Of a stretch of DNA of 64,000 nt, positions 49,234 to 64,000 are shown in pieces. The notes below the pieces were generated by a model that ran no database searches, was not told where the DNA came from, and saw only the letters and a list, made by a program, of their open reading frames with translations. Within the stretch, counting starts at the first letter, position 1. Each line of letters opens with the position of its first letter. The position numbers and the translations under genes are program-made. The stretch is from assembly GCA_947259645.1 (NCBI GenBank), contig CAMYND010000009.1, positions 7,241 to 71,240 of the forward strand. Reading direction: 5' to 3'. The DNA comes from Thermodesulfovibrionia bacterium. Its GTDB lineage: Bacteria; Nitrospirota; Thermodesulfovibrionia; UBA6902.

Positions 49234-50409
49234 ATGATGTTAACAAAACAAAAGTTTATTTCCATGATGGCAGGTATATTTATACTTACGCTGTTATCGC
49301 AGTTAGCTTATGGGCATGGAATGTCTGAAGCAGAGAGACAGGCGATTATAGGAGGCGGCAATCTGAGATATCTGTGGATTGGGGCGACCCATATGCTGAC
49401 TGGCTACGATCACTTGATGTTTGTTTTCGGCATTATCTTTTTTCTGACGAACTTCCGTGATATTGTGAAGTATGTGACTGCCTTTACCCTGGGTCACAGT
49501 GTCACGCTGATTTATGCCACTTATAACGGCATACAGTTAAACTATTTTCTGATTGATGCGGTTATTGCCTTGAGTGTGTGCTACATAGCCTTTGCCAATC
49601 TTGACGGCTTCCGCAAATATCTTTCAATCAAACCACCGAACATGATGCTGATGATCATTGGTCTCGGCCTGATTCATGGCTTTGGTTTATCCACCCGGTT
49701 ACAGGCATTGCCATTAAGTGAAGATAGTCTGTTGCTGAATATTATTTCATTTAATGCAGGCATTGAACTAGGGCAGATTTCGGCACTTGCAGCCATGTTG
49801 GTGCTTGTTGCTGTGTGGCGAAAATCTCAGTCATTCGGTACTCACAGCAGGATTGCAAACTATTCGTTGATTATGTTTGGCCTGCTGTTGTTTTTGGTTC
49901 AGACACACGGCTATTCACACAGCAGCCCGTCTGAAGAACTTACTGCCAGTGCTGAACCGTCTCCGGGAATCATTGCTGCTGACGTGGTTGCTTCGACCGG
50001 AATTCCTGAAGAATCTCAACCATCTCAGTGGAAAGATACGATCACCATAACGATTCCTGCCAGAAGTGGCAAGGAGTATAAATTCCATCTCGTGCAGGGT
50101 GCAGTGCTTGATTACTCGTGGAAGACAGACAGCGAAAAGCTGTATTATGATTTTCACGGTGAACCAAAAGGTGATAAAACAGGTTATTTCGAGAGCTTTA
50201 AGACGAATACCGACAACCAGGCAAAAGGTTCTTTAACCGCTACCTTTGAAGGAACTCATGGGTGGTACTGGGAAAACAAGAGTCCATTGCCTGTTAATGT
50301 CGTATTGCAAACCAGAGGCACCTATCAAATGGTAGCTGCAAAGAAGGAGTTAAAAGATGACTCATTAATTGAAACCCCTAATGCTAAAACTCGCGATAGC
50401 ATTTATTAA
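49234..50409 (+). CDS. HupE/UreJ-family Ni/Co transporter-like membrane domain fused to a ~190-aa C-terminal soluble domain of unknown function
   Basis: AGGAG RBS before ATGATG 49234. HGMSEAE...HMLTGYDHLMFVFGIIFF and later GFGLS...ELGQ segments resemble HupE/UreJ. The beta-rich C-terminal half has no recognised motif. Confidence 0.5.
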   Translation: MMLTKQKFISMMAGIFILTLLSQLAYGHGMSEAERQAIIGGGNLRYLWIGATHMLTGYDHLMFVFGIIFFLTNFRDIVKYVTAFTLGHSVTLIYATYNGIQLNYFLIDAVIALSVCYIAFANLDGFRKYLSIKPPNMMLMIIGLGLIHGFGLSTRLQALPLSEDSLLLNIISFNAGIELGQISALAAMLVLVAVWRKSQSFGTHSRIANYSLIMFGLLLFLVQTHGYSHSSPSEELTASAEPSPGIIAADVVASTGIPEESQPSQWKDTITITIPARSGKEYKFHLVQGAVLDYSWKTDSEKLYYDFHGEPKGDKTGYFESFKTNTDNQAKGSLTATFEGTHGWYWENKSPLPVNVVLQTRGTYQMVAAKKELKDDSLIETPNAKTRDSIY

Positions 50410-50426
50410 CTTATGAGGAGGAAAAT

Positions 50427-50768
50427 ATGCGTAGAATCATTACTTGTTTAGTAGTGTTGCTAACCTTTTCTGTAACCGGAGCTTATGCTGGTGCAGGACA
50501 CTCTCATGCCCCAAAGACTAAAATTACTGAGACTCAGGTTCTTTCAAAGGCAACGAGCATCGTTACCGACATTGTACAAAAAGGCAAGTTGGATGCTTCC
50601 TGGGCTGAGATTAAACCAGCTCTAGCTGAAAAGAGAACCTTTAAGAACAGGCCCGAGTGGGTGATTACTTTTAACAATCCCAAGGAAGAGGACAAAGAGA
50701 AGCAGACACTGTATGTATTTCTCAGTTTGTACGGGGATTATCTTGCGGCTAATCATACCGGGAAATAA
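50427..50768 (+). CDS. small periplasmic protein, hypothetical (N-terminal GAGHSHAP His motif)
   Basis: Signal peptide. 113 aa. No recognised family. Confidence 0.35.
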   Translation: MRRIITCLVVLLTFSVTGAYAGAGHSHAPKTKITETQVLSKATSIVTDIVQKGKLDASWAEIKPALAEKRTFKNRPEWVITFNNPKEEDKEKQTLYVFLSLYGDYLAANHTGK

Positions 50769-50782
50769 TACATTTAACCTTC

Positions 50783-50808
50783 AGGCGGGGTCAGTATTGG
50801 CCCTGCCT
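50783..50808 (+). repeat. palindromic stem-loop element, copy A (terminator-like)
   Basis: AGGCGGGG-tcagtattgg-CCCTGCCT followed by a T-rich tract. About 25/29 identical to copy B at 51576-51604. Confidence 0.5.
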
Positions 50809-51006
50809 ATTCTATTCTCATTTTATCTGGTTATCATTAGTATTATAACCACAAAAAATTATTGACTCTTTAGATAAACAAACAACATCATTTTTTTCGA
50901 AAACTGATGATATTTATTCAGTAGGTAGAATATTATTTTTTCTATGATATAATTTTAATCAATTAATCAAAGCAATAATATAACTATTTAACAAGGGAGA
51001 CTATCC

Positions 51007-51165
51007 ATGAAATTATTTAAGAAATTAACCATGATTGCAGTTGTTGTATTATTTGTTGCGGGAATGTACGGATGTCAAAAAGAAGGTCCAGCAGAACGTG
51101 CTGGCAAGAATATAGACAAGGCATTGGAAGGAGCAAAGGATGCAGTTAAAGATGCTACGAAATAA
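51007..51165 (+). CDS. small secreted/lipoprotein-like protein (52 aa), hypothetical
   Basis: AAGGGAGA RBS 6 nt upstream. Signal-like MKLFKKLTMIAVVVLFVAGMYGC. Lys/Ala-rich tail. Below the 60-aa track cut-off. Confidence 0.3.
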   Translation: MKLFKKLTMIAVVVLFVAGMYGCQKEGPAERAGKNIDKALEGAKDAVKDATK

Positions 51166-51214
51166 TATTCTACGGAATATTAATAACTTTTAAATCTACA
51201 ATAAGGAGGGGAAT

Positions 51215-51553
51215 ATGGCGTTAGGCTGGTTTGAAGTTGAAAAGGCACCAAATGGACAATATTATTTTAATTTAAAAGCAGGAAATGCAGAAACGATATT
51301 ATTCAGTGAGCAATATACAACGATGGATGGGTGCAATAATGGGATAGCATCTGTTCAATCTAATAGTGGTGAAGAAGCGAATTACGAACGGAAAGAATCT
51401 AACAAAGGCAAGCCTCATTTTGTTCTAAAGGCTAAGAATCACCAGGTAATCGGCCATAGTGAAAAGTATGAGAGTGCAAGTGGTATGGAAAATGGGATTA
51501 AGTCAGTAATGACTAATGGGTCTACTTCAACCATTAAAGATAAAACTACATAA
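51215..51553 (+). CDS. YegP-like (DUF1508) tandem-repeat protein
   Basis: Two repeats: GWFEVEKAPNGQYYFNLKAGNAETILFSEQYTTMDGCNNGIASV and HFVLKAKNHQVIGHSEKYESASGMENGIKSV. Confidence 0.65.
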   Translation: MALGWFEVEKAPNGQYYFNLKAGNAETILFSEQYTTMDGCNNGIASVQSNSGEEANYERKESNKGKPHFVLKAKNHQVIGHSEKYESASGMENGIKSVMTNGSTSTIKDKTT

Positions 51554-51575
51554 AAGCATCACATGTTTATTCTTC

Positions 51576-51608
51576 GGGCAGGGTCAGGAGTGGCTCTGCC
51601 TTTTTTAT
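51576..51608 (+). terminator. Rho-independent terminator after the yegP-like gene (palindromic element copy B)
   Basis: GGCAGGG-tcaggagtgg-CTCTGCC (7-bp stem with a G.U pair) followed by TTTTTTAT. Confidence 0.6.
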
Positions 51609-51835
51609 AGACTTAAACTGGCAATTTGCAACTTCAGTGTCACTGCTGAGTATACACAATTAGATGGAGCCGTTATTTTTAGATTGAAGCAGGATTATTG
51701 ACTTGAAGATTAAATCAATAATTATATAACAGAATTAAATTGTTGGTATTTTATGCTCTAAAAGTCGTACAATTTTGTGTTATCTTGGGCTTCTAATTTA
51801 ATCAAGAAGGATGGACATCATACCTGGAGGATACA

Positions 51836-52369
51836 ATGGCTACTTTTAAGGATCGTATTATTCGAGCTGCTAAACTGGATGTTCACCTGTACGAGGAAGT
51901 TGAGGCTGACAAGGAGGCAATGAGTCAAGCCATGGGGGTTGTTATTCTCTCCAGTTTAGCAGCCGGGATAGGAAGTATTGCAATAGGAGGCATTGGCGGG
52001 CTTTTAATAGGAACCATCTCAGCTCTTATAGGGTGGTATGTCTGGGCATATCTCACTTACTTTATTGGTACAAAAGTCCTTCCAGAGCCACAGACCAGAG
52101 CAGACCATGCTGAGTTATTACGCACTATCGGGTTTGCAAGCTCTCCTGGCTTGATTCGAGTATTGGGCATCATTCCTGGGCTGGCAGGAGTGGTTTTTAT
52201 AGGTGCCTCTATTTGGATGCTGGTGGCAATGGTGATTGCGGTCAGACAAGCTCTTGATTATAAGAGCACCGTACGCGCTGTAGGAGTTTGTGCGATTGGC
52301 TGGATTATTCAAGCAGTAATCCTCGCGTTAGTGTTTGCTATTTTTGGTGGTCCCGCAAAACCTGTCTAA
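51836..52369 (+). CDS. Yip1-domain membrane protein
   Basis: Soluble N-terminal segment, then five TM helices with Gly-rich packing. Length and topology fit the Yip1/DUF1282 family. Confidence 0.4.
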   Translation: MATFKDRIIRAAKLDVHLYEEVEADKEAMSQAMGVVILSSLAAGIGSIAIGGIGGLLIGTISALIGWYVWAYLTYFIGTKVLPEPQTRADHAELLRTIGFASSPGLIRVLGIIPGLAGVVFIGASIWMLVAMVIAVRQALDYKSTVRAVGVCAIGWIIQAVILALVFAIFGGPAKPV

Positions 52370-52475: not shown

Positions 52476-54932
52476 TTAAGTCCCCTCTACCTTCACCGTA
52501 TTAATAGGATGCTCTCCATTTGAAGACAGGCGTGTGAGCATGTTTATTCTGGCATGGGGAAAGTGAGTTGGTACGAAGACCGTTCCTTCTGGCACATCGT
52601 CGGAGAGGGCAGCCTTGAGAAATACTGAGCCCTGTCGCGATGAGACCTTAACGTGGCTGTTGTCCGCGATGTCATATTTTTTCGCGTCTTCTTCATTGAT
52701 CTCCAAAAGAGCTTCCGACACAACAAGGTCAAGTGATTTTGAACTGGTAGACATGCTCCCGGAGTGCTGGAGAATATCTCTGATCACGAGTTTAAAGGGG
52801 TATTCTTTGTCTGCTTCTTCTCCCGGCCTGAATTCGACAGGATGAAAAGTTCTCTGAACAGAGACAGGATCCGCAGGACTGCCTGCATCCCCGATTTCTT
52901 CCTTAACAGCAGCGAGATCTCTTATCCCGACATCTTTGCCCATGGAGAGGGCAAGATTTTTCAGGATCATCCAGTCAGGCATGGACTGGCCGGTCGCGTC
53001 AGCAAGTTTATATACTGTCTGGTGAGTGCCTTCAGCGTTAATGAAGGTGCCGTCCTTTTCTGCCCAGCTTGAAGCCGGAAGCACAACATTAGCAAGTTTT
53101 GCTGTCTCGGTCATGAAAATATCCTGTACAACGAGAAAATCCAGGGATTTTAATTTAGCCATCACTTTGGAGCTGTCCGGAAAAGTCGTCACAGGATCCT
53201 CCCCCATAATATAGAGGGCTTTTACGGAGTTGTCCTCATAGAGCATCTTTACAATATCTTTGTCAGATGGTTGCATGGGTCTGACGCCCATATTATAAAG
53301 ACCATAGGTATTTGAGTATTCAGCAGGGACCTGGAGTGAATCAGGCTCGTCGCCGAGAAGATTAATGAGGTTTGCAGCAGCAAGTACTGTATCCAGTCCT
53401 TTTGTGTTTTCTGAAGTACTGACTGAAAGGGATATCATTCTGCTCTTTGCATTGCCAATGGACTCTGCTGCGGCTATAATTTCCTCTTCACTGATCCCTG
53501 TTATTTTTGAGACGTTTTCAGGTGTGTAGTTCTTCAGAGTTGACTGAAGTGACGAGAACTCAGGAATGGCTGATGCAGCGCTCTTATCGTATAAGCCTTT
53601 ATCCAGTATTACCTTTGTTAATCCATTAACAAGCGCAAGGCTTGTTCCGTCCTTGATTTCAAGCCAATCAGTGCTGTGCCGGGTGAGTTTTGTTTCCCGG
53701 GAATCAGCTACTATAAGCTTGCTGCCTGCTCTCATTGCCTCGAGGATGTTAATTCCATATACCGGGTGGGTTACGCTTATATCTGATTCAAGAATCAGAA
53801 TGACCTCTTTCCCTGCGGGAGCGTTAAGGCTTATGGGGTGATTCTTCTGGCCGAATGCTTTTTCCCATACTTTTTGCACTCCGCCATATCCAAAGGCCGC
53901 GGATGAGTCAAGGTTGTTTGTGCCGACCACGTTCTTCATGAATTTCTGAAGCACATAATTGTCTTCATTCGTGCAGCGGGGAGAACCGATCGCGCCTATT
54001 GACGAGGCACTGGAATTTTTTGAGATCTTCTCAAGGTTTTTTGCAACGTAGGAGAGGGCATCTTCCCATGATACGCTTTTAAACTCATCGCCTTCCTTAA
54101 TGAGCGGTGTCTTGAGGCGCTTTTCACTATAGATATAATCAATGCCGAATCTGCCGCGTCCGCAGAGGTTTCCGTCATTTACTCCTGTTCCCTGTTTTCC
54201 TCTGGACCTGAGAATTTTTCCCTCCCTCATGCCGAGATGGAGCGTGCAGCCAACGCCGCAGAAGGGACAGATGGTGCTTTTCTCCTCAAGAAACCATGAG
54301 CGTGAGGTAAATTTGTAGGGTTTGCTCAAGATCGCTCCGGTTGGACAAATATCAAGGCATTGCCCGCAGTAGTCACACTCGAGTATTTCGCCAAAAGCAG
54401 GCTGAACAACCGTTGGGAACCCCCTGCCGATCAGTCCCAGGGCACCTCTTCCCTGATGGTCTCTGCAGATTCGTACGCACTTTCCGCAAAGGATGCAGCG
54501 CCGTGACGTAAGTTCAATTAACGGGCCCCGGATGTCTGATTTCGTCTCTTTTCTGGACCGGATAAACCGTGTGTCAGGTTTGCCGTATTCATAGGCGAGG
54601 TCCTGGAGGTCACATTCCCCAGCCTTGTCACATTCAGGACAGTCAAGGGGATGATGGACCAGGAGGAGTTCTATTACTGTCTGGCGCTGTTTCCTTAATT
54701 TTGGTGTGTCTGTCTGAATGACCATTCCGTCAGCAGCAGGGGAAGAGCATGCTGCAAGAAGACGGGCCTGACCCTCTACTTCAACAATGCAGAGCCTGCA
54801 TCCCCCGTAAGGCCTGAGCCTCTTGTCGTAGCACAAATTCGGGATATAAATATCATTTTGCAAAGCAGCTTCCAGAATGGTGCAACCCTGTTCTGCCTGG
54901 ATTTTCTTGTTGTTTATCGTGAGATTCATCAT
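52476..54932 (-). CDS. molybdopterin-oxidoreductase-fold subunit, FdhA/NuoG-like (N-terminal 2Fe-2S, His-ligated 4Fe-4S, 2x 4Fe-4S and MopB cluster); catalytic Sec/Cys apparently absent
   Basis: CYDKRLRPYGGCRLC (2Fe-2S). HHPLDCPECDKAGECD. CILCGKCVRIC and CDYCGQCLDICP. CPFCGVGC (MopB FS0). C-terminal molybdopterin-dinucleotide-binding-like domain. Where FdhF has GTNNVDCCARV-U-HGPS, this protein has GTNNLDSSAAFGYGGV. Confidence 0.6.
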   Translation of the reverse strand: MMNLTINNKKIQAEQGCTILEAALQNDIYIPNLCYDKRLRPYGGCRLCIVEVEGQARLLAACSSPAADGMVIQTDTPKLRKQRQTVIELLLVHHPLDCPECDKAGECDLQDLAYEYGKPDTRFIRSRKETKSDIRGPLIELTSRRCILCGKCVRICRDHQGRGALGLIGRGFPTVVQPAFGEILECDYCGQCLDICPTGAILSKPYKFTSRSWFLEEKSTICPFCGVGCTLHLGMREGKILRSRGKQGTGVNDGNLCGRGRFGIDYIYSEKRLKTPLIKEGDEFKSVSWEDALSYVAKNLEKISKNSSASSIGAIGSPRCTNEDNYVLQKFMKNVVGTNNLDSSAAFGYGGVQKVWEKAFGQKNHPISLNAPAGKEVILILESDISVTHPVYGINILEAMRAGSKLIVADSRETKLTRHSTDWLEIKDGTSLALVNGLTKVILDKGLYDKSAASAIPEFSSLQSTLKNYTPENVSKITGISEEEIIAAAESIGNAKSRMISLSVSTSENTKGLDTVLAAANLINLLGDEPDSLQVPAEYSNTYGLYNMGVRPMQPSDKDIVKMLYEDNSVKALYIMGEDPVTTFPDSSKVMAKLKSLDFLVVQDIFMTETAKLANVVLPASSWAEKDGTFINAEGTHQTVYKLADATGQSMPDWMILKNLALSMGKDVGIRDLAAVKEEIGDAGSPADPVSVQRTFHPVEFRPGEEADKEYPFKLVIRDILQHSGSMSTSSKSLDLVVSEALLEINEEDAKKYDIADNSHVKVSSRQGSVFLKAALSDDVPEGTVFVPTHFPHARINMLTRLSSNGEHPINTVKVEGT

Positions 54933-56782
54933 TATTTGTCACCTCCCTCTTTAACTGCCGAGACAGGTTTTTCTTTCCGGATGGCCGGCTTTACCTCAAT
55001 TGAGGCGAATTTGCAGGTGTCATAGCATGACCTGCACTGTATGCACAGTTCCTGAATGATCCTGTGGGCCTTTTTCTTTTCTCCGACGATGGCTTCCTGC
55101 GGACATGCCCGCAGGCAGGCACCGCATCCCTTGCACAGTTCTTCGGAAATATGAAATGAGCAGAGGTCGCTGCATATTCCTGCTTCACACCAATGATCTT
55201 TAATGTGTGCTTCATATTCATGTTTGAAATATCGTATCGTGGAAAGGACGGGATTCGGGGCTGTCTGGCCGAGTCCGCAAAGAGATGTACTGATAATGTC
55301 CCTGCTCAGGTCTTCAAGCTTTTCAATATCGCCTTCCTGTCCTCTGCCCTCTGTTATGTCGGTGAGCATATCGAGCATTACTCTTGTTCCGACGCGGCAG
55401 GGGGTGCATTTCCCGCATGATTCATCGGCGGTAAACTCAAGAAAAAACTTTGCCGTGCTCACCATGCAAGTGTCTTCGTCCATTACTACCATTCCTCCTG
55501 AACCCATGATAGCACCGGTCTTGACAATGTCTTCGTAGGTTACGGGGATGTCGATATGGTCCTCGGGGATACAGCCTCCTGAGGGGCCGCCCATTTGCAC
55601 GGACTTGAACTTTTTCTTTTTGTTTGTCATCCCGCCACCGATATCATAGATAATCGTTTTCAGAGGGGTTCCCATGGGGACTTCGACGAGCCCGACGTTT
55701 TTTATATCCCCTGTAAGGGCAAATACCTTTGTGCCGGTACTCTTTTCAGTCCCCAGTGACTTGTACCATTCAGCCCCGTTCAGGATGGTTGGGGCTATCT
55801 GTGCCAGGGTCTCAACGTTGTTCAGGACTGATGGCTTGTCCCACAGGCCCTTATGGGCAGGGAAGGGAGGACGTGGTCTTGGCATACCGCGCTTTCCTTC
55901 AATGGAACGCATCAGCGCTGTTTCTTCACCGCATACAAATGCCCCTGCACCCAGGTATATTTCAAGGTCAAAGTTAAATCCGCTTCCCAAAATGTTTTCA
56001 CCAAGAAGACCATTCTCACGACAAAGCTTAATCGCTGTTTCAAGCCTCGCTACTGCCAGCGGATACTCGGCTCTGACGTAGATTACGCCTTTGCTCGCGC
56101 CTATCGCCTTTGCGCCGATTAACATGCCTTCGATTACTGAGTGGGGATCAGATTCCATAACAGACCTGTCCATGAATGCCCCGGGGTCACCTTCGTCACC
56201 GTTGCACAGCATGAACTTCTGGTCAGCTACTGACTTTGAGGCGAACTCCCACTTTAACCCTGTCGGGAAACCTGCTCCTCCCCGTCCCCTGATTCCTGCG
56301 TCTTTAATAGTCTGTATTATATCTTCCGGGGTCATTTCCGTTAAGGCCTTACCAGCAGCCATATACCCGTCTCGTGCGATGTACTCATCCAGGCTGTCAG
56401 GATCAATGAGCCCCTTATTCCTCAGGACCCTCAATACCTGGTGCTTGAAGAACGGGATATCATTCATTAATGGAATGGCTGCCCTCTTCTCAGGGTCCTT
56501 GAACATCAGTTTTTCATAGGGCCGGCCTTTCAGGAAGTGCTCTTCAACAAGTTTCGGGACTTCCGCGACAGTCAATTTCTGATAAAAGATCTCTTCAGGG
56601 TACACCAGCATTACAGGCCCTTCAGCACAGAATCCGTTGCATCCGGTCAGCACGATCTTTACCTCGTCGGCAAGGCCCTGCTTTTCCAGCTCTTCCTGAA
56701 GGGCATCTTTAACCTTGGGGGTCCCGCTTGCAACGCATCCGGTCCCGGCACACATGAGTAAATTGGCACGATATTTTTCCAT
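54932..56782 (-). CDS. NuoF/HndC-like NAD(P)H-binding flavoprotein subunit with N-terminal thioredoxin-like 2Fe-2S domain and C-terminal 2x[4Fe-4S] ferredoxin domain
   Basis: GRGGAGFPTGLKWEF (FMN/NADH site). ESCGKCTPCRVGT (N3 cluster). CKGCGACLRACP and CIQCRSCYDTC ferredoxin motifs. N-terminal CAGTGC...C. Confidence 0.8.
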   Translation of the reverse strand: MEKYRANLLMCAGTGCVASGTPKVKDALQEELEKQGLADEVKIVLTGCNGFCAEGPVMLVYPEEIFYQKLTVAEVPKLVEEHFLKGRPYEKLMFKDPEKRAAIPLMNDIPFFKHQVLRVLRNKGLIDPDSLDEYIARDGYMAAGKALTEMTPEDIIQTIKDAGIRGRGGAGFPTGLKWEFASKSVADQKFMLCNGDEGDPGAFMDRSVMESDPHSVIEGMLIGAKAIGASKGVIYVRAEYPLAVARLETAIKLCRENGLLGENILGSGFNFDLEIYLGAGAFVCGEETALMRSIEGKRGMPRPRPPFPAHKGLWDKPSVLNNVETLAQIAPTILNGAEWYKSLGTEKSTGTKVFALTGDIKNVGLVEVPMGTPLKTIIYDIGGGMTNKKKKFKSVQMGGPSGGCIPEDHIDIPVTYEDIVKTGAIMGSGGMVVMDEDTCMVSTAKFFLEFTADESCGKCTPCRVGTRVMLDMLTDITEGRGQEGDIEKLEDLSRDIISTSLCGLGQTAPNPVLSTIRYFKHEYEAHIKDHWCEAGICSDLCSFHISEELCKGCGACLRACPQEAIVGEKKKAHRIIQELCIQCRSCYDTCKFASIEVKPAIRKEKPVSAVKEGGDK

Positions 56783-56913
56783 ATCTTTTCCCTCTATCTA
56801 TAAAGTAGTATTCTGATCCTCTGTTTTCTGAAAAATATCAATCTCCTGAATGTAATCAGGATAATAAACGTTGTGTATTGTTTTTGTCTTTACGCTGACA
56901 GCTGAAAGCTGAA

Positions 56914-57297
56914 TTAATACGTTGTCTCACTCCCCATCACGAGGGCATATTTCTCTACAGGTGTGCCGCCGAGGACATGATCCTTAAAGATCTCCTTCAG
57001 TTTATCAACGGTAACATCGCCATATTTTACCGGTGTGTTATCAGCTATTTCCACGGTCATCATCGGTTCACGGGCACAGAGTCCGGCGCAGCCTGAGGTG
57101 GTGGTAATAACATCATTAACTTTAGATTCTGTGATTTCATCTATCAGGGCTGTCATGATATCCCGCGCTCCCGCTGCTATTCCGCAGGTTCCCATATGAA
57201 CGGTAACTTTTGCCCTGTATCCGCCTTCTCTCAGGTTGAATGTTGCCTGCTGTTTTTCTTTTATTTTCTTTAAATCAGCGATCGTTAACTTTGCCAT
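56914..57297 (-). CDS. HndB-like small thioredoxin-fold [2Fe-2S] ferredoxin
   Basis: 127 aa. HMGTCGIAAGA...SGCAGLCAREP Cys pattern matches the NuoE/HndB-type 2Fe-2S fold. Confidence 0.55.
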   Translation of the reverse strand: MAKLTIADLKKIKEKQQATFNLREGGYRAKVTVHMGTCGIAAGARDIMTALIDEITESKVNDVITTTSGCAGLCAREPMMTVEIADNTPVKYGDVTVDKLKEIFKDHVLGGTPVEKYALVMGSETTY

Positions 57298-57381
57298 TTG
57301 AGTCCTCCTGTTATTGCTGTGCCCGTTGTTTCAGTTACTAAAACGTGCATGAATCAGTAACACAGATTGCCGAACCTTTTA

Positions 57382-58254
57382 TCATGCGTATTCTTCCAGA
57401 ACACCCTGAACCTTTTTTGGTGTCATTGCACCGTATGTTTCTTCATCCACGACAATAACAGGCGCAAGACCGCATGCCCCGAGGCACCGTACTGTTTCGA
57501 TAGAGAATTTTTTGTCTTCCGTAACCTCTCCAACATCTATTTTGAGCGTTGATTTGAATTTTTCCAGTACTTCCTCTACTCTCTTTACGTAGCACGCTGT
57601 GCCGAGACATACCCTGACATTATGGTCCCCTCTGGGTTTCATGGTGAAATAGGAATAAAATGTCACGATACTGTGAATTTCTGCCGGAGACATATTGAGC
57701 CCCTTCGCGACCCGTTTCTGCACAACAGGGGGCAAATATCCGACGATTGCCTGACAGCGCTGGAGAACAGGGATTGAACTTCCCGGCTTGTTCCTGTACT
57801 CCTTTATGACCCGGTCAATCTCCTGTCTCATGGACGGGGGAAATTCTTCCTCTTTTTTCTCTTCTTCAACAGCAGCCTTGCCCTTTATCCACTGCACTGA
57901 CCGTTCTGTTACGTCCAGAAGCACTGCCGGGGTAAAGGGTTTCGGCACATAATCGATTATTCCGGCTTCAAGGGCATCTTTAATCGTATCCTGTGACGGG
58001 TACCCCGTGATGACAACGATACCGGTGTCAGGCCTGTTCTGCCTGATCCACTTAATAAGGGTGATACCATCTACTTCAGGCATCTTAAGGTCAGTGAATA
58101 CGAGGTCATAGGGGGTCTGCTCCATCTTCAGTATCGCCTCTTTGCCTCCCAGAACTCCTTCGATATTGTACCCTTCGGACCTGAGTACCGATTCGCAGCT
58201 TCTGATAATGACGGGCTCATCGTCAACAACCAGAATTTTAATATCATCTGCCAT
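57382..58254 (-). CDS. response-regulator receiver domain fused to NuoE/HndA-like [2Fe-2S] subunit
   Basis: N-terminal CheY-like domain (ILVVDDEPVII...DLVFTDLKMPEVDG...KPF). C-terminal NuoE signature (IPVLQRCQAIVGYLPP...VCLGTACYVKRVEEV...VRCLGACGLAPV). Confidence 0.75.
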   Translation of the reverse strand: MADDIKILVVDDEPVIIRSCESVLRSEGYNIEGVLGGKEAILKMEQTPYDLVFTDLKMPEVDGITLIKWIRQNRPDTGIVVITGYPSQDTIKDALEAGIIDYVPKPFTPAVLLDVTERSVQWIKGKAAVEEEKKEEEFPPSMRQEIDRVIKEYRNKPGSSIPVLQRCQAIVGYLPPVVQKRVAKGLNMSPAEIHSIVTFYSYFTMKPRGDHNVRVCLGTACYVKRVEEVLEKFKSTLKIDVGEVTEDKKFSIETVRCLGACGLAPVIVVDEETYGAMTPKKVQGVLEEYA

Positions 58255-58426
58255 AAGAAGCCTCCATTGCGCTGTTTATAGGTGGACGTTTAAATGAAAA
58301 GGCAGGCTTTACACGTATTGAGAAACACCCGGGACAATTATGTGCATGGACCTGTTTATTCATATTTGCTGTTCAGTGTACCTGTTACCAATTTCTGTCT
58401 TATCCTTCGATCTGAGAGACAAAACC

Positions 58427-59191
58427 CTATTTTGCTAAGGGGAATACTTTTGCCAGCCAAAGAAGCCATCCTTCTGATAGATGGTCCTTAAGAAGTGCTG
58501 CCATGACGTCATTCGCCTTCGTATTGATCTCTCTGAGCTCTCCATTCATGGGAGAAAGCAGGCTTTGTGATTTGCCGCTGCTTGTATAAATATTCGCAAA
58601 AACCTGACCCGCATCAAGGGTATCCAGATCTTTAACAAACTCTACATACATTAAATCTCCTGCAAGCATCCAGTATCTCAGGTCACAGCCGACTTCCCAC
58701 AGTCCGTCGCCGGAGGGTCGTGCCCAGGTGCCTTCTTTATAAAAAATAACAGGGTTTTCCTGGTCCCGCAGGGGTGATACAAAGTCCCTGAAATCGTCAA
58801 TAAAGGCCTGCCGCAATATCCAGCCCCGGGTGTCAAAAACCTTCTGGGCGACATTAAGCATAAAGTCAGGGGTAAAGGGTTTTTCAATGTATTCCGCTGC
58901 TCCCAGTTTTGACGATTCCTTGGCATCTTCCAGAGTCGGGTAACCCGTAATTATCACTACGTCTGTTTTCGGCTTGATGACACGGGCTTCCTTAAGCACT
59001 TCTAGCCCGCTCATTCCCGGCATTTTCACATCGGATATCAGGAGGTCAAAATCTTCTTTTGAGAGTTTATTGAGGGCATCTTCTCCGTTATCTACCGTGG
59101 AAATGCTGTAACCTTCAGCTCCGAGAATTCTCTTGCAGCTTAAGGTTACAATTGGATCATCATCGACTACTAGTATTCTCCCTTTTTCCAT
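58427..59191 (-). CDS. response-regulator receiver domain fused to a GcvH-like (lipoyl/biotinyl-type hybrid barrel) domain
   Basis: N-terminal CheY-like domain (ILVVDDDPIV...DLLISDVKMPGMSG...KPF). The C-terminal about 120 aa aligns by eye with glycine-cleavage H protein (FYKEGTW...GLWEVGCD...AGDLMYVEF...YTSSGKSQSLLSPMNGELREIN...EGWLLWLA), including a Lys at the lipoyl-Lys position. Confidence 0.5.
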   Translation of the reverse strand: MEKGRILVVDDDPIVTLSCKRILGAEGYSISTVDNGEDALNKLSKEDFDLLISDVKMPGMSGLEVLKEARVIKPKTDVVIITGYPTLEDAKESSKLGAAEYIEKPFTPDFMLNVAQKVFDTRGWILRQAFIDDFRDFVSPLRDQENPVIFYKEGTWARPSGDGLWEVGCDLRYWMLAGDLMYVEFVKDLDTLDAGQVFANIYTSSGKSQSLLSPMNGELREINTKANDVMAALLKDHLSEGWLLWLAKVFPLAK

Positions 59192-59295
59192 TACGCCCCC
59201 TCCTGGCTGTTATGACTCTCCGATTACATCAGACTGGTGCACCCATAACCGGACAGCCTTTAATTGGGTCTATAGTATCATATTATTTCTATAAT

Positions 59296-59820
59296 TTAGC
59301 CAGCACTTATAGCGTCTTTAATAATTTTTATTACGTCCGGCGTATTAATCGGGATATTGCCCAGCTCTTTTTTTATTTCAGATGTATCTAAAACGTATGT
59401 TTTATCATCTCTTTTGTGTTCGAAGAAAAAATCAATTTCAGGATTAGATACTATCAGAACGATCAGTGTTTTTCCAACATCTCCCATGGGTTTCCTGTCT
59501 ATGTGGTCATGCTGAAAAGATACGGATATGGAGGTGCCCCCGCCTTTTTGAGAGGTCACCTGTATGTCCCCCCTGCACTCCCGTGCAGCCTGGGCGAGCA
59601 TCGGGATGCCAAGCCCCACTTTTCTCGTCGTCCTTGTAGTGTAAAAGGGATCGCAGGCATGTTCCAGCAGTTCCGCGTCCATCCCCTGTCCGTTGTCTTT
59701 AATGTCTATAGTCAGGATATTGTCTTTGACACTTTCCCTCAGCCTGATCTCAATTCTGGACGCCCCCGCTGTTATCGAGTTTTCAACAATATCAAGGATA
59801 TGTAATGATAGATCTTCCAT
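59296..59820 (-). CDS. GHKL-type ATPase domain protein (histidine-kinase-like / anti-sigma-factor-like Ser kinase), no HisKA or sensor domain
   Basis: N-box region ILDIVENSITAG. G1 DNGQGM. G2 GLGIPM. C-terminal about 70 aa of unknown function. Confidence 0.6.
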   Translation of the reverse strand: MEDLSLHILDIVENSITAGASRIEIRLRESVKDNILTIDIKDNGQGMDAELLEHACDPFYTTRTTRKVGLGIPMLAQAARECRGDIQVTSQKGGGTSISVSFQHDHIDRKPMGDVGKTLIVLIVSNPEIDFFFEHKRDDKTYVLDTSEIKKELGNIPINTPDVIKIIKDAISAG

Positions 59821-59934
59821 AATTGTGATTTATCTTGCCACAGACTTGCACAGACTTAAAGACATGATACTATCTCTATTACTGTTTAGTGCTTAACCTG
59901 CTTTTGTCTGTGTTAGTCAGTGGCTGAATAATCT

Positions 59935-60675
59935 TCACTCCCATTCCACCTTTCTTCCATCTTTGTTTTTCATTGCCATTCTTATCTCTGTAATTGACGG
60001 GGCCTGCAGGGAGAAATTTGAAATTTTTTTTGCAATGTCTGCCGGATAGTGGGCGTCAGAGGACGCTATCCAGGTATATGAGCTGTAGTCTTTGAACAGG
60101 CTCTCAGCCTTTTCCCTTGTCATATTCGGGGACATTTCAAGGGCGTCAAAGTTCATCTGATCCGGGATAAATCCCAGCTGCGACAGTATACTGAAGGCCC
60201 CCCTGTCAATATGTGAGGCTATGGCCAGACCGCCCAGATCGTGGATGGTCTCTATTATTGTTTGAGCAGGCAGATCAGTGGCGGCTATGAGCATCCGATT
60301 GTTCATGCCTAACACTTCATCCTGTTCATTGACAATTACCTGCTCCCCGAATCTGCTTACATCATTGGTCCCGGGAAGAAGGTTTTTATATACAATTTCC
60401 TGTAGATCTAAAATACGATCGTCATCAAAGATCCCCAGGATATGTGCTTCTTCTGAAGATGCTACCTCCATACCGGCAAGAACAGTAAGGTTGAACTGCG
60501 CTGCGGATTTTCTTGCTGCCTGCACATTTTCAGCAGAATTGTGGTCAGTAATAGCGATGATATCCAGACCCTTTTGTGAAGCGGTCTCAATAATTGAAGC
60601 AGGGGTCATATCCAGTTCAGCGCAGGGGGAAAGGCAGGTATGTATATGCAGGTCAGCTTTATATTGTTTCAACAT
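59935..60675 (-). CDS. PHP-domain metal-dependent phosphoesterase
   Basis: DLHIHTCLSPCA and IIAITDHNS His motifs of the PHP superfamily. Confidence 0.7.
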   Translation of the reverse strand: MLKQYKADLHIHTCLSPCAELDMTPASIIETASQKGLDIIAITDHNSAENVQAARKSAAQFNLTVLAGMEVASSEEAHILGIFDDDRILDLQEIVYKNLLPGTNDVSRFGEQVIVNEQDEVLGMNNRMLIAATDLPAQTIIETIHDLGGLAIASHIDRGAFSILSQLGFIPDQMNFDALEMSPNMTREKAESLFKDYSSYTWIASSDAHYPADIAKKISNFSLQAPSITEIRMAMKNKDGRKVEWE

Positions 60676-60708
60676 AAGAGGTTTTCAGGATTCTGTTCAG
60701 CAGCTCTT

Positions 60709-61044
60709 TTACCTGTCAAGCAGTTGATAAAGCTTTCCTGCTGCTTCAAATGCCGGCAGGGGTGTTGTCATGACAGTTACTTTTTCGGCCCGGGCCTTCT
60801 CTATGACGTCTTCCGCCGGTTTTCTGTTTCCCACAATAATTATTCCGGCCAGGCCTTTCATATCAGCTACAGCGATAATATTCAGGTGAGTCTGAAGCGT
60901 AATCCATATATTCCCTACATTGCTGTTGGCCATAACATCAGACAGGAGATCACTGACATATGCTCCCGTGACTTCATTATTCATGCTTTCTTCACAGGTT
61001 ACTATTTCCAGCGACAAGTCTTTGATCAGATCCTGAAGATTCAT
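60709..61044 (-). CDS. DRTGG-domain protein
   Basis: About 110 aa with a core resembling the DRTGG domain (IAVADMKGLAGIIIVGN...). Confidence 0.5.
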   Translation of the reverse strand: MNLQDLIKDLSLEIVTCEESMNNEVTGAYVSDLLSDVMANSNVGNIWITLQTHLNIIAVADMKGLAGIIIVGNRKPAEDVIEKARAEKVTVMTTPLPAFEAAGKLYQLLDR

Positions 61045-61085
61045 AACATGACCCCTTTTGTAGTATTTCTCAGTATGAAATATGT

Positions 61086-61523
61086 CTACGGGATATTTAA
61101 AACCATCTCCACTGTCGTGCCTTCGCCCACAACAGACTCAATATTAAATTCATCTGAGTTCTTTTTCATGTTCGGGAGCCCCATTCCTGCTCCCCAGCCC
61201 ATTTCCCGCACCCACTCGGGAGCGGTCGAGTACCCCTCCTGCATTGCCTGCTCGATATTTTCAATGCCGGGCCCCATGTCTTCAATCCTGATCCGGATGG
61301 AAGACGGGCCAATAAAGTACAGCAGTCGTGCTGCTGCCGCGTATATAATTACATTGATTTCCGCTTCAAAGGTGGCGATAGCGGCACGCCGTATGATTTC
61401 TTCAGCAACACCGAGATCAGTGAGCGTCCGTTTCAGCTCGCCAGAGGCCTCACCGGCAGTGGCAAAGTTTCCGCCTACGAGCTGAAAGCTGCCTTCTATT
61501 GTTTTGTCACTATTCAGTGGCAT
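61086..61523 (-). CDS. GHKL-type ATPase, anti-sigma-factor/RsbW-like Ser kinase
   Basis: EAEINVIIYA N-box-like. DMGPGI (G1). GAGMGL (G2). About 145 aa, like SpoIIAB/RsbW. Confidence 0.6.
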   Translation of the reverse strand: MPLNSDKTIEGSFQLVGGNFATAGEASGELKRTLTDLGVAEEIIRRAAIATFEAEINVIIYAAAARLLYFIGPSSIRIRIEDMGPGIENIEQAMQEGYSTAPEWVREMGWGAGMGLPNMKKNSDEFNIESVVGEGTTVEMVLNIP

Positions 61524-61527
61524 CTGC

Positions 61528-61878
61528 TTACTTGTCCAGACATCCCGGTAACCCCTCTTTAAACAGCCTTCCTGAGGCGGTGTACATGCAGAAGGATGTG
61601 CTTAACAGGGGGATTTTTTTCTTTTGAGCCAGGTCGATAGTTTCTTTGTCCGGCTTCTTATCCAGGACAAAAACAATGGATTTGATCCCCGCTATTTCAG
61701 CGGTACGGATAACATGAGGCTGGGTGAGGCTGGTGATAAGCAGTGAGTTGGGTGTGTGGTAATACAGGACAGCGCTCATCATATCAGCACTGCAGGCGCT
61801 GTGAATATCTATCTCTGAATTCTCAGGATTTGCGATGATAGATGCTTCAAGAATTTTAGCTATCTCTTTTAAAATCAT
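61528..61878 (-). CDS. DRTGG-domain protein (second copy)
   Basis: About 116 aa paralogous to 60709-61044 (LITSLTQPHVIRTAEIAGIKSIVFV). Its stop overlaps the downstream GHKL gene. Confidence 0.5.
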   Translation of the reverse strand: MILKEIAKILEASIIANPENSEIDIHSACSADMMSAVLYYHTPNSLLITSLTQPHVIRTAEIAGIKSIVFVLDKKPDKETIDLAQKKKIPLLSTSFCMYTASGRLFKEGLPGCLDK

Positions 61879-61901
61879 ATGATTAGCATCTCAGATGCGC
61901 T

Positions 61902-62267
61902 TTAGTCCGATGGTCCGAATACTTCCTGAACCGCTTTAAGCAGCGTGTCGGGTGTAAAAGGCTTTTCTATAAAGTTATATGCACCGACTCTCAGCGCCTG
62001 AACAGCCGTATCAACTGTGCTGTAGCCTGTTACCATAACAACTTTCGTCTCCGGCCAGTTCTCCTTTATTTTGCTGAGCACCTCCATGCCGTCCATGTCC
62101 GGCATTTTCAGGTCAAGCAGAACCAGTGCGAAGGTTTCCTTTTCAAGGCACGCTATCCCTTCTTTGCCGCTGGCCGTGAGCGTCACATCATATCCTTCCG
62201 GGGTCAGGGTCCTGTCGCAGCTTGTCCTGACTATGGCTTCATCATCTACTACGAGAATTTTTTTCAT
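61902..62267 (-). CDS. single-domain response regulator (CheY-like receiver)
   Basis: ILVVDDEAIV...LVLLDLKMPDMDG...KPF. Start overlaps the upstream kinase stop (ATGA). Confidence 0.8.
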   Translation of the reverse strand: MKKILVVDDEAIVRTSCDRTLTPEGYDVTLTASGKEGIACLEKETFALVLLDLKMPDMDGMEVLSKIKENWPETKVVMVTGYSTVDTAVQALRVGAYNFIEKPFTPDTLLKAVQEVFGPSD

Positions 62268-63850
62268 GATTCTAAGGGTAGTCTAACAAAAAAGCTGGTG
62301 CCTTTACCAATGGTGCTCTTGACCTTTATATGGCCGCCCAGGTGCTTCACAATTCCATGACTTACAGAGAGACCGAGCCCTGTTCCTTTCCCGACCGGCT
62401 TGGTTGTGAAAAAGGGTTCAAAGAGCTTTGGCATGTCCTCTTCCTTTATTCCGCACCCTTCGTCTGTAAACTCTATTTCAACATAGGGCTTTTCATTTTC
62501 CAATGCCCCCCTCGTTCTAATGGTGATATTCCCCCGGCCATTCATGGCGTCAGCAGCATTAATGAACATGTTCAGAAAAATCTGCTGGAACTGAGAACCA
62601 TCGCCTACAACGACAAACTGCTTGTCCGCGAAATCCGGGTTGAATTTTATATGGTGAAACTTTGCCTGGTTCTGCACCATGAATATTGTCCTGTTCAGCA
62701 CCTCATTAATGCTTACCTTGCCTTTCTCAGAAGGTGTCGCACGGGCGAAGGTGAGAAGGTTTTTGATGATTTTTGCGCATCGTTCAGACTGTTCAATAAT
62801 AATATCGAGGTCCTGTGATTCGGTGCTTTCCGGGGGAAACCTCTTCTTTAACAGGTGAGCAAATGTGACGACTCCGGTTAAAGGGTTGTTAATTTCATGG
62901 GCCACCCCCGCGGCCATTCTTCCCAGAGATGCCAGCTTTTCAGTCTGCATGAGGTTGGCATGGGTCTTCTGGATTTCATCTGTTTTCTTTTCAATTTCTA
63001 CTTCAAGGGTCTGGGTCCATCGTTCCCGCTGGTCTCTGGCCCCTTTCAGGTCACGGATCATCGAGTTGAATGTTCGCGCCAATTTGCCGATTTCATCATC
63101 TGATCTCACCTGAACAGTGTTCTCGAGGTTCCCGCCGGAAACCTTCTCCATTCCCTGGACAAGCTCATTGACCGGTTTGGAAACAATTTTATAGAGGATG
63201 ATTCCAAGAAAGATCGATACGGCAAGAACAAACATGATAACGTACGCGGTCAGGGCGAGCCCCTGCTTTAAGAGGGCCTCATCCAGAACAGCAAGGGAGA
63301 GGTCTGCCTTCACAAAGCCGAGTATTTCCGGGCTTTCCGGATGGGCGTGACAGGCTGCCGTGGAACATTCGGGGGCGTTTAAAATCGATTCTACCATGTG
63401 CAGCGAGGTTTTACCTTTTTCGTCTCTGTGGACGAACAGTTTTCTGGTTTCTGTCAGCAATTCCCCTGATTCACTGTTGGAATGACATCCGGTGCAGGCT
63501 ATAGATGTTCTGTCAACAGAGTTCCCTGCTTTTTCTGATTTTGATGAAAATACAATGTTGCCGCGATGGTCGTAGATCTGAACGCCCTGAACACCTTCCG
63601 GCGTGCTGAGGGTGTCCAGTACGCGCTGGGTTTCTTCCCTGTCAAATATAAGCATGCTGCGGCGTGTGCTGGCTTTCGTGAAGTTTACAAAAGACCTGCC
63701 GTACTTGGTCGCAATCGACAGAACATCTTTTTCCTGCTTTTGAAGAATGGCATACCAGAAGATGAGGCTCAGTATAATCATCAGGAGGCCGATGGCGATA
63801 ATAAGCTTTGCAGCTATGGATTTATCGGGATTGCGGAGAATATTTTTCAT
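62264..63850 (-). CDS. sensor histidine kinase with a periplasmic di-heme c-type cytochrome sensor domain
   Basis: TM1. Periplasmic domain with two CxxCH motifs (CTGCH, CSTAACH). TM2, HAMP-like linker and HisKA H-box (AAGVAHEINNPL). HATPase_c G-boxes (DEGCGI, GTGLGLS). Confidence 0.75.
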   Translation of the reverse strand: MKNILRNPDKSIAAKLIIAIGLLMIILSLIFWYAILQKQEKDVLSIATKYGRSFVNFTKASTRRSMLIFDREETQRVLDTLSTPEGVQGVQIYDHRGNIVFSSKSEKAGNSVDRTSIACTGCHSNSESGELLTETRKLFVHRDEKGKTSLHMVESILNAPECSTAACHAHPESPEILGFVKADLSLAVLDEALLKQGLALTAYVIMFVLAVSIFLGIILYKIVSKPVNELVQGMEKVSGGNLENTVQVRSDDEIGKLARTFNSMIRDLKGARDQRERWTQTLEVEIEKKTDEIQKTHANLMQTEKLASLGRMAAGVAHEINNPLTGVVTFAHLLKKRFPPESTESQDLDIIIEQSERCAKIIKNLLTFARATPSEKGKVSINEVLNRTIFMVQNQAKFHHIKFNPDFADKQFVVVGDGSQFQQIFLNMFINAADAMNGRGNITIRTRGALENEKPYVEIEFTDEGCGIKEEDMPKLFEPFFTTKPVGKGTGLGLSVSHGIVKHLGGHIKVKSTIGKGTSFFVRLPLES

Positions 63851-64000
63851 ATCCGTGTATTATAGGTGCGTTTTTGTTTTTTTAAAAGAATTAAATAATA
63901 AAATTTCAGTTATTTATAAATGTTCATTTTGCAATGTAGCATTCTCAAAATTGCCGGTAAGCATAATTCCGGGGTATTGCTGATAAATAAGTTAAAACTA

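Follow-up and report, generated by a model that had tools for sequence, protein, structure and literature searches.

A 64,000-nucleotide (nt) stretch of a Thermodesulfovibrionia bacterium genome (contig CAMYND010000009.1, positions 7,241 to 71,240; referred to here as the window) carries a co-directional array of twelve genes at positions 52476 to 63850 of the minus strand, which we read, with a probability of about 65%, as one functional unit: a cytoplasmic NADH- and ferredoxin-linked flavin/iron-sulfur (Fe-S) enzyme of the Bfu family (HydABC/Hnd type) under dense posttranslational control. At the sequence level, the enzyme core is a member of the Bfu/HydABC family and not a formate dehydrogenase (FDH), an Hnd/Hyd hydrogenase, or a canonical complex I N-module, and we conclude that a predicted Bfu-type BC module is wired to a NuoG-type A subunit that is very likely noncatalytic. 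The locus is a heavily regulated version of a known family rather than a new enzyme class. We read the array as a unit because its gene families stay linked among relatives, the gaps between them shrink, HndB-like and BfuB proteins can be fused, and one of its small ATPase genes (GHKL2) has an ortholog inside the hydC-hydD-hydB-hydA operon of Subdoligranulum. The labels "gated" and "electron-input" given to the locus in an earlier, sequence-only reading of this DNA are inferred properties.

Exactly twelve intact open reading frames (ORFs), all on the minus strand, fill the region as that reading had proposed, and each of its domain assignments is reproduced by Pfam and NCBIfam. They code, in order, for a membrane kinase, a free receiver (REC), a five-gene DRTGG-GHKL-DRTGG-PHP-GHKL cassette, REC-GcvH and REC-NuoE fusions, an HndB-like protein, BfuB, and BfuA. 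The products are 528, 121, 116, 145, 111, 246, 174, 254, 290, 127, 616, and 818 amino acids (aa) long, the intergenic distances are -4, 23, 4, 41, 33, 114, 104, 172, 84, 131, and -1 nt, and no competing long ORF with a domain match is present between 52476 and 63850. The "several ATGA overlaps" noted previously were overstated, as there is a single one (kinase/REC) and one further overlap, a 1-nt TAATG at the NuoF/NuoG junction; no other junctions overlap. The AT-rich region upstream of the kinase gene (63851 to 64000) probably holds the array promoter and contains a promoter-like site at 63886 to 63859 on the minus strand (10/12 match in a promoter scan); in relatives, this is a divergent promoter region shared with nuoA. 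No convincing internal terminator rises above background in the array, and a search of it for sigma-54 promoters gives nothing above chance. Rfam and tRNA scans of the 40- to 64-kb part of the window are empty, and no conserved riboregulator is found; across relatives, the intergenic regions keep only ribosome-binding sites.

One scan of species-representative genomes, in which ORFs were called and matched to the twelve window proteins, yields 80 related loci, all of them in Thermodesulfovibrionia, and the close homologs all come from Nitrospirota/Thermodesulfovibrionia metagenome-assembled genomes (MAGs). The window gene order is complete in seven loci (L004, L005, L006, L018, L019, L060, and L074), besides several truncated ones, and BfuA identity to the window is 68 to 79% in loci with this order. 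About thirteen complete loci, with BfuA 62 to 69% identical, have the order kinase-REC-(NtrC-type sigma-54 regulator)-REC-GcvH-REC-NuoE-HndB-BfuB-BfuA-cassette, in which the five-gene cassette is placed downstream of BfuA, having shifted as a block while still attached. The twelve-gene array is far beyond chance, because twelve families keep the same order in seven complete loci and are rearranged in dozens more. Comparative genomics had been proposed as a check on co-occurrence of the twelve genes, and the co-conservation that it reveals argues against unrelated transcription units. Two or three such units standing side by side (a two-component system, a kinase/phosphatase cassette, and an oxidoreductase) would be in keeping with gaps of 104 to 172 nt at four junctions, with loci that carry the core genes alone (L001 and L016), and with the variable position of the cassette, upstream or downstream of the enzyme genes. 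We consider this very improbable, however, as a receiver domain is physically fused to BfuC, the families remain linked through rearrangements and across phyla, the gaps in relatives are down to 4 to 50 nt with ribosome-binding sites as the sole conserved element, and the scan of the array shows no internal terminator above background.

The B subunit ties the core most directly to the Bfu family. BfuB (54932 to 56782, minus strand) is a HydB-type flavoprotein with Complex1_51K and NADH_4Fe-4S domains, and it has the sites of a Bfu-family B subunit: an N-terminal [2Fe-2S] site (B5), the flavin mononucleotide (FMN)/NADH site with an N3-type [4Fe-4S] cluster (B1), a Cys/His segment (B2), and a C-terminal 2x[4Fe-4S] domain (B3/B4). 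The corresponding residues (C11/16/48/52, C456/459/462/502, H526/C532/C537, and eight C-terminal Cys) are conserved in 73 orthologs. BfuB gives gap-poor, end-to-end matches to A. mobile NiFe-HydB (7t2r_B; 824 bits) and A. woodii HydB (7q4v_B; 803 bits) and also aligns end to end with HydB of T. kivui and T. maritima and with the B subunits of Stn/NfnABC, whereas the nonbifurcating FdsB and Nqo1/NuoF score no more than 404 bits and align with its central part only. The extra Fe-S sites of the B subunit set bifurcating Bfu enzymes apart from nonbifurcating homologs (PMC9304861, PMC11829005); FdsB has none of the bifurcation-type extra clusters, and the N-terminal [2Fe-2S] and C-terminal 2x[4Fe-4S] sites are missing from NuoF. 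In line with this, BfuB scores 496 bits against the NuoF equivalog, below the cutoff of 559.

The other two small-subunit positions agree with this placement. The C1 [2Fe-2S] site of a Bfu-family BfuC is present in the REC-NuoE protein, and its cluster cysteines (C216/C221/C257/C261) are 100% conserved. Next to it, the HndB/HydD-like small thioredoxin-fold protein (56914 to 57297, minus strand; 2Fe-2S_thioredx at 7.2e-5, under the Pfam cutoff) has only three conserved cysteines, C38/C70/C74, each 100% conserved; a small protein of this type is known from A. woodii HydABCD (PMC6288185), and it is an extra subunit relative to NuoEFG. In some relatives, an HndB-like domain is fused to the BfuB N terminus, replacing the usual thioredoxin-like domain (L039, 8050 to 9999, 649 aa), or is tandemly duplicated within one ORF (L021, 7339 to 8019, 226 aa). 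These fusions and duplications argue that the HndB-like protein is likely a physical part of the complex. The electron-transfer half does follow the hndA-hndB-hndC order, and a NuoG/FdhA-like gene takes the place of the hydrogenase gene, as had been noted. The same order of NuoE-like, HndB/HydD-like, NuoF-like with extra Fe-S, and A subunits is seen in HydABC(D)/HndABCD of T. maritima, A. woodii, T. kivui, and D. fructosovorans, which also share the A-subunit N-terminal Fe-S domain and the DRTGG/GHKL/PHP companion genes. The window differs from these in that its A subunit has a NuoG/Fdh-like domain without catalytic residues instead of an H-cluster domain, its BfuC has an N-terminal receiver, and a heme-motif kinase, a free REC, and REC-GcvH are added.

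BfuA (52476 to 54932, minus strand) is NuoG/FdhA-like, with Fer2_4, NADH-G_4Fe-4S_3, Fer4_Nqo3, Molybdop_Fe4S4, Molybdopterin (1.2e-54), and Molydop_binding domains. Its five Fe-S sites comprise a [2Fe-2S], a His-ligated [4Fe-4S], two ferredoxin-type [4Fe-4S], and a Molybdop_Fe4S4 cluster, and all 20 ligand cysteines are 99 to 100% conserved in 83 sequences. The molybdopterin-type domain was suspected of being noncatalytic, and the residues bear this out. An FDH alpha subunit has a Cys or Sec ligand followed by His, plus an Arg; relative to R. capsulatus FdsA, C386 is Gly, H387 is Tyr, and the active-site Arg is Ala in BfuA, and the replacing motifs DSSAAFGY and PAEYSNTYG are family invariant. 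Among the 150 best 50%-identity representatives from a search of 1.8 billion proteins, the canonical CAR[VL]CH and PLRGQNNVQG motifs occur only in a minority resembling true FDHs, and most BfuA relatives have an active site that is degenerate in various ways. The canonical complex I NuoG encoded at locus L078 shares the BfuA-like Pfam architecture, a similar degeneration, and a two-residue deletion in domain IV. Cryo-electron microscopy has shown that the Fdh-like domains of StnC and NfnA(Bfu) are pterin free (PMC10482914, PMC11829005). BfuA is thus very likely noncatalytic.

BfuA could also be taken as part of a true Mo/W formate dehydrogenase (FdsABG-like or Fdh-Bfu) whose active site is unconventional, since its top-scoring PDB and NCBIfam matches are FDH alpha subunits. 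The best PDB match overall is FdsA (6tg9; 2.4e-112), and the Fe-S domain order is that of FdsABG from R. capsulatus and C. necator; 9bov_A (2.7e-91) and 8oh5_C (4e-75) are also among the best matches, and 7t2r_A (5e-71) matches the N terminus. Pterin-contact motifs (RCTNE, GEDP, QDIFxTETA, and PASSWAEKDGT) also persist, and in the Mo-like domain, conservation reaches at least 95% at about 25% of the positions. Nevertheless, the Gly, Tyr, and Ala replacements are invariant in the family, the GMG motif is lost, BfuA scores 467 bits against Fdh-alpha TIGR01591 (cutoff, 666), and the lineage's own complex I NuoG shows the same pattern, making a working FDH extremely improbable. A cryptic FDH was accordingly rejected on its active-site residues. 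Two observations on BfuA relatives stand apart from this. P0241 (1,405 aa, the top representative) was tried as a Rosetta-stone fusion to a partner and is only a tandem head-to-tail BfuA-BfuA fusion. P0336, P0338, P0345, and P0356, of about 1,370 to 1,390 aa, have intact CAR[LV]CH and RGQNNVQG motifs, and by Pfam, P0336 has a GltD/NfnB-like module inserted in an FdhA-like protein, as in StnC; these four could be NADPH-linked formate dehydrogenases of the Bfu type.

Nor is the missing catalyst found close by. None of the twelve ORFs has an H-cluster domain in Pfam searches, and tblastn with the H-domains of HydA and HydS finds none in the window or in the 80 loci. The 64-kb window contains neither nuo nor nfnAB nor catalytic genes of a hydrogenase or FDH, and catalytic genes of the latter two kinds are also absent within 10 kb at the 80 loci. 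The proteins could in principle be the diaphorase/bifurcating part of a larger enzyme, a hydrogenase (NiFe-HydABCSL-like or Hnd-like) or an FDH, whose catalytic subunits are encoded elsewhere, as suggested by the NiFe-HydABCSL B subunit being the best PDB match of BfuB, by the match of the BfuA N terminus to an H-cluster-less HydA (7t2r_A), by an accessory cassette that is otherwise hydrogenase associated, and by a nickel-transporter-type HupE/UreJ gene 2 kb downstream. With no such catalytic gene in the window or near its relatives, and with nuo and nfnAB as the conserved neighbors, we regard this as improbable. The sequence-only reading had also asked whether a canonical FDH or hydrogenase gene immediately outside the window might explain the module; the relatives show neither, and a complex I (nuo) operon is there instead.

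The regulatory half begins with a membrane sensor histidine kinase (62264 to 63850, minus strand), consisting of a first transmembrane helix (residues ∼13 to 35), a periplasmic loop of about 160 residues (∼36 to 197), a second transmembrane helix, and HAMP (5.6e-13), HisKA (8.4e-17), and HATPase_c (3.6e-26) domains. No Pfam domain covers the loop, which carries CTGCH (119 to 123) and CSTAACHAH (162 to 170) between the two predicted helices; the CxxCH and Cx4CH(xH) motifs and the H-box are at least 95% conserved in 26 orthologs. Cytochromes c3 of the Desulfovibrio type attach heme c through two motifs, CxxCH and Cx4CH, and it is reasonable to regard the kinase as a putative heme-based periplasmic redox sensor. 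In the earlier designation as a heme-sensor kinase, heme binding is predicted from the motifs.

Three receivers accompany the kinase, two of them fused to redox or carrier modules as previously described, and all keep the phospho-acceptor set. The stand-alone CheY-like receiver (REC1; 61902 to 62267, minus strand; Response_reg, 2.6e-33) begins in the ATGA overlap with the kinase stop codon and conserves the DD/D52/T/K set. REC-GcvH (58427 to 59191, minus strand) joins a receiver (1.7e-28) to a GcvH-fold domain (GCV_H, 2.9e-7). In an AlphaFold2 model, residues 120 to 254 have a predicted local distance difference test score (pLDDT) of 84.8, and the 22 best PDB fold matches of the C-terminal domain are all glycine-cleavage H proteins (template modeling scores, 0.49 to 0.65). 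Among 45 orthologs, the lysine close to the lipoylation hairpin varies, in contrast to the phospho-acceptor set of the receiver; a lipoyl-carrier role was rejected for this reason, and the C-terminal part is read as a likely adaptor domain. REC-NuoE (57382 to 58254, minus strand) joins a receiver (2.9e-29) to a NuoE/HydC/BfuC-type [2Fe-2S] domain (2Fe-2S_thioredx, 6.3e-49) by way of a charged and flexible linker. Its AlphaFold2 model has two well-folded domains without a fixed mutual orientation (predicted template modeling score, 0.45) and a Lys/Glu-rich linker at 128 to 136 with pLDDT below 50. The acceptor D55 is 100% conserved, and both domains are present in all of the 120 best matches listed; the searches with REC-NuoE and with BfuA were filled by close Nitrospirota relatives, which are what these counts cover. 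Among nfnAB-linked loci, some REC-NuoE-like proteins are shorter, 247 to 272 aa (L059, 6712 to 7455, and L061, L062, and L069), and the C-terminal cluster-binding part of this type looks degenerate or truncated.

The three receivers are 38 to 45% identical in pairwise comparisons without gaps, and D10/11, D54-55, T82-83, and K103-104 are conserved in all of them (30 to 56 orthologs). Together with the H-box and ATP-binding boxes of the kinase, the DD-D-T-K sets amount to the sequence features of a two-component phosphorelay. Three similar and intact receivers would fit with one cognate kinase.

The five-gene cassette between REC1 and REC-GcvH is of a different kind. It consists of DRTGG-domain protein 1 (61528 to 61878; DRTGG, 2.1e-8), the small SpoIIAB-like ATPase GHKL1 (61086 to 61523; HATPase_c_2, 3.3e-7), DRTGG-domain protein 2 (60709 to 61044; DRTGG, 3e-6), a PHP-family metal-dependent phosphoesterase (59935 to 60675; PHP, 7.1e-10), and the small ATPase GHKL2 (59296 to 59820; HATPase_c, 2.9e-17), all on the minus strand. 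GHKL1 scores 55 bits against the anti-sigma F factor TIGR01925, under its cutoff, and its N-box and G-boxes are conserved, as are the metal-ligand motifs HxH, DH, and DxH of the PHP protein in 40 orthologs. Because these PHP and GHKL catalytic motifs are conserved, the cassette is probably enzymatically active, and its members may form a kinase/substrate/phosphatase arrangement. Against PDB sequences, the PHP and DRTGG proteins have generic or insignificant matches only.

Outgroup copies of the cassette came to light when annotated records were searched by tblastn with the PHP protein. In Parabacteroides distasonis (L082), DRTGG1 and GHKL1 come first, then a protein annotated as "[Fe-Fe] hydrogenase large subunit C-terminal domain", and then DRTGG2, PHP, and GHKL2; the PHP protein there, whose gene adjoins the DRTGG and [FeFe]-hydrogenase-like genes, is 38.5% identical to that of the window. 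In Subdoligranulum variabile (L083), DRTGG1-GHKL1-(HydS-like)-DRTGG2-PHP is divergent from an adjoining NuoE-GHKL2-HndB-HydB-HydA operon, with GHKL2 between the hydC (NuoE) and HndB-like genes. Cassette members are reciprocal best matches, each to its positional counterpart, in both loci; GHKL1 orthologs score 133 bits in both, and the L082 ortholog of DRTGG2 scores 97 bits. Bacillota and Bacteroidota have a HydS gene between GHKL1 and DRTGG2; at this position, the window has a 41-nt gap. Gene order and reciprocal matches indicate that the cassette is an old companion of HydABC/HydS loci and not peculiar to this locus or lineage. Land et al. (2020; PMC8163306) place a neighborhood of Group D putative sensory [FeFe]-hydrogenases (HydS) upstream of HydABC, and the window shares with it the orthologous DRTGG1-GHKL1-...-DRTGG2-PHP-GHKL2 genes in the same order beside a Bfu-type core; it differs in having a classical two-component system and no HydS. 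The array can be read as an ancestral "HydABC plus companion cassette" supercluster in which the A subunit has been swapped to the NuoG type, HydS is missing, and the heme-motif two-component system and its receiver fusions are additions. We note that the L082 record (NZ_OY725779.1, "plasmid 34", 375 kb) carries gyrA, clpB-type, and other housekeeping genes and is probably a chromosome fragment. The PHP/GHKL2 junction is interrupted by 1- to 3.5-kb insertions in L010, L047, L068, and L074, one of which (in L010) carries a minus-strand ORF of 398 aa that is found again elsewhere in the locus, and this junction may be a mobile element hotspot.

Clustering the remaining ORFs of the related loci brings out two sets of neighbors beyond the twelve genes. 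The first is complex I. A divergent nuoA-nuoB-nuoC-nuoD(-nuoE-nuoF) operon lies beside the kinase gene in 18 of the 21 informative loci, those with enough sequence upstream of that gene, and does so in both gene-order clades. In L004, L005, L006, L019, and L060, nuoA starts 300 to 450 base pairs upstream of the kinase gene on the opposite strand; the window includes 150 nt upstream of the kinase gene and stops about 300 nt before the position at which nuoA starts in the nearest relatives. In L078 (Thermodesulfovibrionales MAG C1_metabat.bin.51, 1 to 21265), the whole array sits between nuoD and nuoE-nuoF-nuoG-nuoH-nuoI-nuoJ-nuoK on the same strand. This locus also codes for an extra REC protein (4322 to 5173) whose C-terminal domain has no assignment.

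These ties raise the possibility that BfuABC is a switchable alternative NADH/ferredoxin input module of complex I, a Nuo-Bfu in trans that would dock on the NuoBCDI quinone module in place of NuoEFG and drive menaquinone reduction by joint oxidation of ferredoxin and NADH, with the kinase and receivers choosing the module. Nuo-Bfu, a 14-subunit complex I with a BfuABC input module, has been predicted for clades 38/39, which include Nitrospirae (Schut et al. 2022; PMC9304861), and it resembles the situation here in that Bfu-type NuoEFG homologs are tied to nuo genes, in L078 from the middle of the nuo cluster. BfuA shares the Pfam architecture and the degenerate Mo-site of the lineage's NuoG and scores 456 bits against the NuoG equivalog, just under the cutoff of 470. 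However, neither BfuA nor BfuB reaches its N-module equivalog cutoff, BfuA is 36% identical to the L078 NuoG and thus no nearer to it than to true FDHs (33 to 35%), and in most genomes the Bfu genes form a separate, divergent, and regulated operon next to nuo operons with their own canonical NuoE (about 155 aa, without REC) and NuoF (without the Bfu-type N-terminal domain), plus NuoG in L078. No nuo genes adjoin the core-only loci L001 and L016, and adjacency may reflect shared regulation only. We therefore treat an alternative complex I module as unlikely, if a serious candidate. The more specific version, a phosphorylation-switched ferredoxin/NADH input module in which a periplasmic heme-sensor kinase selects canonical NuoEFG or a confurcating BfuABC for complex I, is rather doubtful.

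The second set of neighbors is NfnAB. In 16 loci, nfnA-nfnB lies directly upstream of REC-nuoE, with NfnA at 423 bits against PRK06222 and NfnB at 574 bits against TIGR01316, both above cutoff. Five of these pairs are within otherwise complete regulated arrays (L021, L027, L054, L057, and L066), and the others head paralogous clusters, in some of which the BfuB-BfuA pair is duplicated in tandem; a second, nfnAB-linked cluster is often present where a genome has a window-type array. The duplicated form, nfnA-nfnB-REC-nuoE-hndB-bfuB-bfuA-bfuB-bfuA, is seen in L024, L028, L030, L053, and L077 (also L038 and L079); these loci have no second NuoE-like gene, and the two BfuA copies fall in different clades.

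A split transhydrogenase of the Stn/NfnABC (Bfu) type, in which BfuABC and an NfnAB-type pair encoded elsewhere in the genome would couple NADH, ferredoxin, and NADP(H), draws on these arrangements. Stn/NfnABC is an NADH-dependent ferredoxin:NADP transhydrogenase (PDB 8oh5, 9bov, and 9n5u) that shares with the window the BfuBC core and an A subunit with NuoG-like clusters and a catalytically dead Fdh-like domain, and StnC and NfnA-Bfu (8oh5_C and 9bov_A) are the closest solved pterin-free relatives of BfuA. StnC/NfnA has a GltD/NfnB-like flavin adenine dinucleotide-NADPH module inserted after the N-terminal [2Fe-2S] domain (PMC10482914), which BfuA of the window does not have, whereas some relatives encode a separate nfnAB in the operon, five times inside otherwise identical regulated arrays. 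Receiver fusions are not reported for Stn/Nfn. We rate such an enzyme unlikely for the window: nfnAB is absent from the array and from the whole window, the nfnAB-linked loci mostly belong to other BfuA clades (III/IV), and the second, nfnAB-linked paralogue usual in window-type genomes argues for different jobs.

Returning to a Bfu-family enzyme under posttranslational control, we propose that it would have no catalytic third site of its own. NADH and ferredoxin would be coupled at BfuBC, and BfuA would exchange mid-potential electrons with a docking partner that is encoded separately and for which complex I and NfnAB are the leads. In the clade of the window, the partner might be the quinone-reducing part of respiratory complex I, or there may at least be a shared control circuit; this is the best contextual lead. 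In sister clades, it would probably be the NfnAB pair encoded inside the operon, with NADP(H) then the third substrate. The membrane kinase may sense the periplasmic or electron-chain redox state through its c-type heme(s) and phosphorylate the three paralogous receivers, one free, one fused to the GcvH fold, and one tethered to BfuC. The REC-BfuC protein could switch enzyme activity or assembly directly, and not only through transcription, by oligomerization or by restraining the mobile BfuC domain that has been described for Bfu enzymes (PMC11829005), with REC-GcvH and the free REC as further outputs. The cassette would be a second, ancient ATP-dependent control module of the kinase/phosphatase type, inherited from HydABC loci and here without a HydS-type H2 sensor. 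Overall, this appears to be an electron-bifurcating-type enzyme under direct phosphorelay control and plugged into respiration.

Several observations weigh against this proposal. The array and the 64-kb window contain no third-substrate module; the five Fe-S sites of BfuA are present without a third-substrate domain or subunit to go with them in the window, or an H-cluster in the 80 loci. The nuo neighbor of the window's own array is inferred from relatives only. As nuo operons have canonical nuoE/nuoF(/nuoG) genes, complex I does not need the Bfu module, and nuo linkage goes with the kinase gene no less than with the enzyme genes. Two closed genomes (L001 and L016) have the four core genes only, with no REC fusion, regulators, or nearby nuo, and the regulators are thus dispensable for the enzyme. 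Finally, the gaps of 104 to 172 nt in the window could hide internal promoters.

The view that no characterized equivalent exists holds for one part of the locus. The core has characterized relatives in the Bfu/HydABC family (PMC9304861) and in the Stn/NfnABC A subunits (PMC10482914, PMC11829005), but the regulatory additions were not found described. In the searched literature, there is no description of a receiver-BfuC (NuoE) fusion, a REC-GcvH protein, the heme-motif kinase, a HydS-less cassette, or the recurrent tie to complex I and NfnAB, and the association of DRTGG/PHP/GHKL genes with hydrogenases is likewise not described there.

Outside the array, the downstream border is formed by convergent and unrelated genes (Yip1, DUF1508, DUF6488, HupE/UreJ, and integrase) in a stretch of lower GC content. 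This stretch (47684 to 52369), directly downstream of the array, has a GC content of 37 to 39%, compared with 46 to 50% in the array, and includes a tyrosine-recombinase/integrase gene at 47684 to 48538, the DUF6488, DUF1508, and Yip1 genes, and the HupE/UreJ-type gene (49153 to 50409), which at 418 aa is unusually long. It may be an integrated element; no tRNA gene is near. Farther away, a 495-aa ORF (41523 to 43010) joins rhodanese domains to cytochrome c554/c7-type multiheme domains, beside DsbB/DsbA-like genes and two YeeE/YedE-type sulfur-transport genes (44990 to 47428), and this neighborhood looks as if it handles sulfur.

In anaerobes, the balance between NADH and ferredoxin is set by Bfu/HydABC-type enzymes, and to our knowledge, nothing is known of how the activity of these enzymes is controlled. 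Thermodesulfovibrionia are abundant subsurface sulfur-cycling bacteria, and the locus, widely conserved across many of them, is experimentally tractable. With a receiver attached to the mobile BfuC subunit, the idea that phosphorylation directly controls electron bifurcation can be tested, and a HydS-less version of the widespread, uncharacterized DRTGG/GHKL/PHP cassette separates the role of the cassette from H2 sensing. The recurrent ties to complex I and NfnAB point to how a "catalyst-less" Bfu core is connected to respiration or to the supply of NADPH. A physical link to complex I, if there is one, would be relevant to the evolutionary path proposed from ferredoxin-dependent to NADH-dependent complex I, and if the array does encode a switched input module, it would be the first direct two-component control of an electron-bifurcating enzyme and the first modular, exchangeable complex I N-module.

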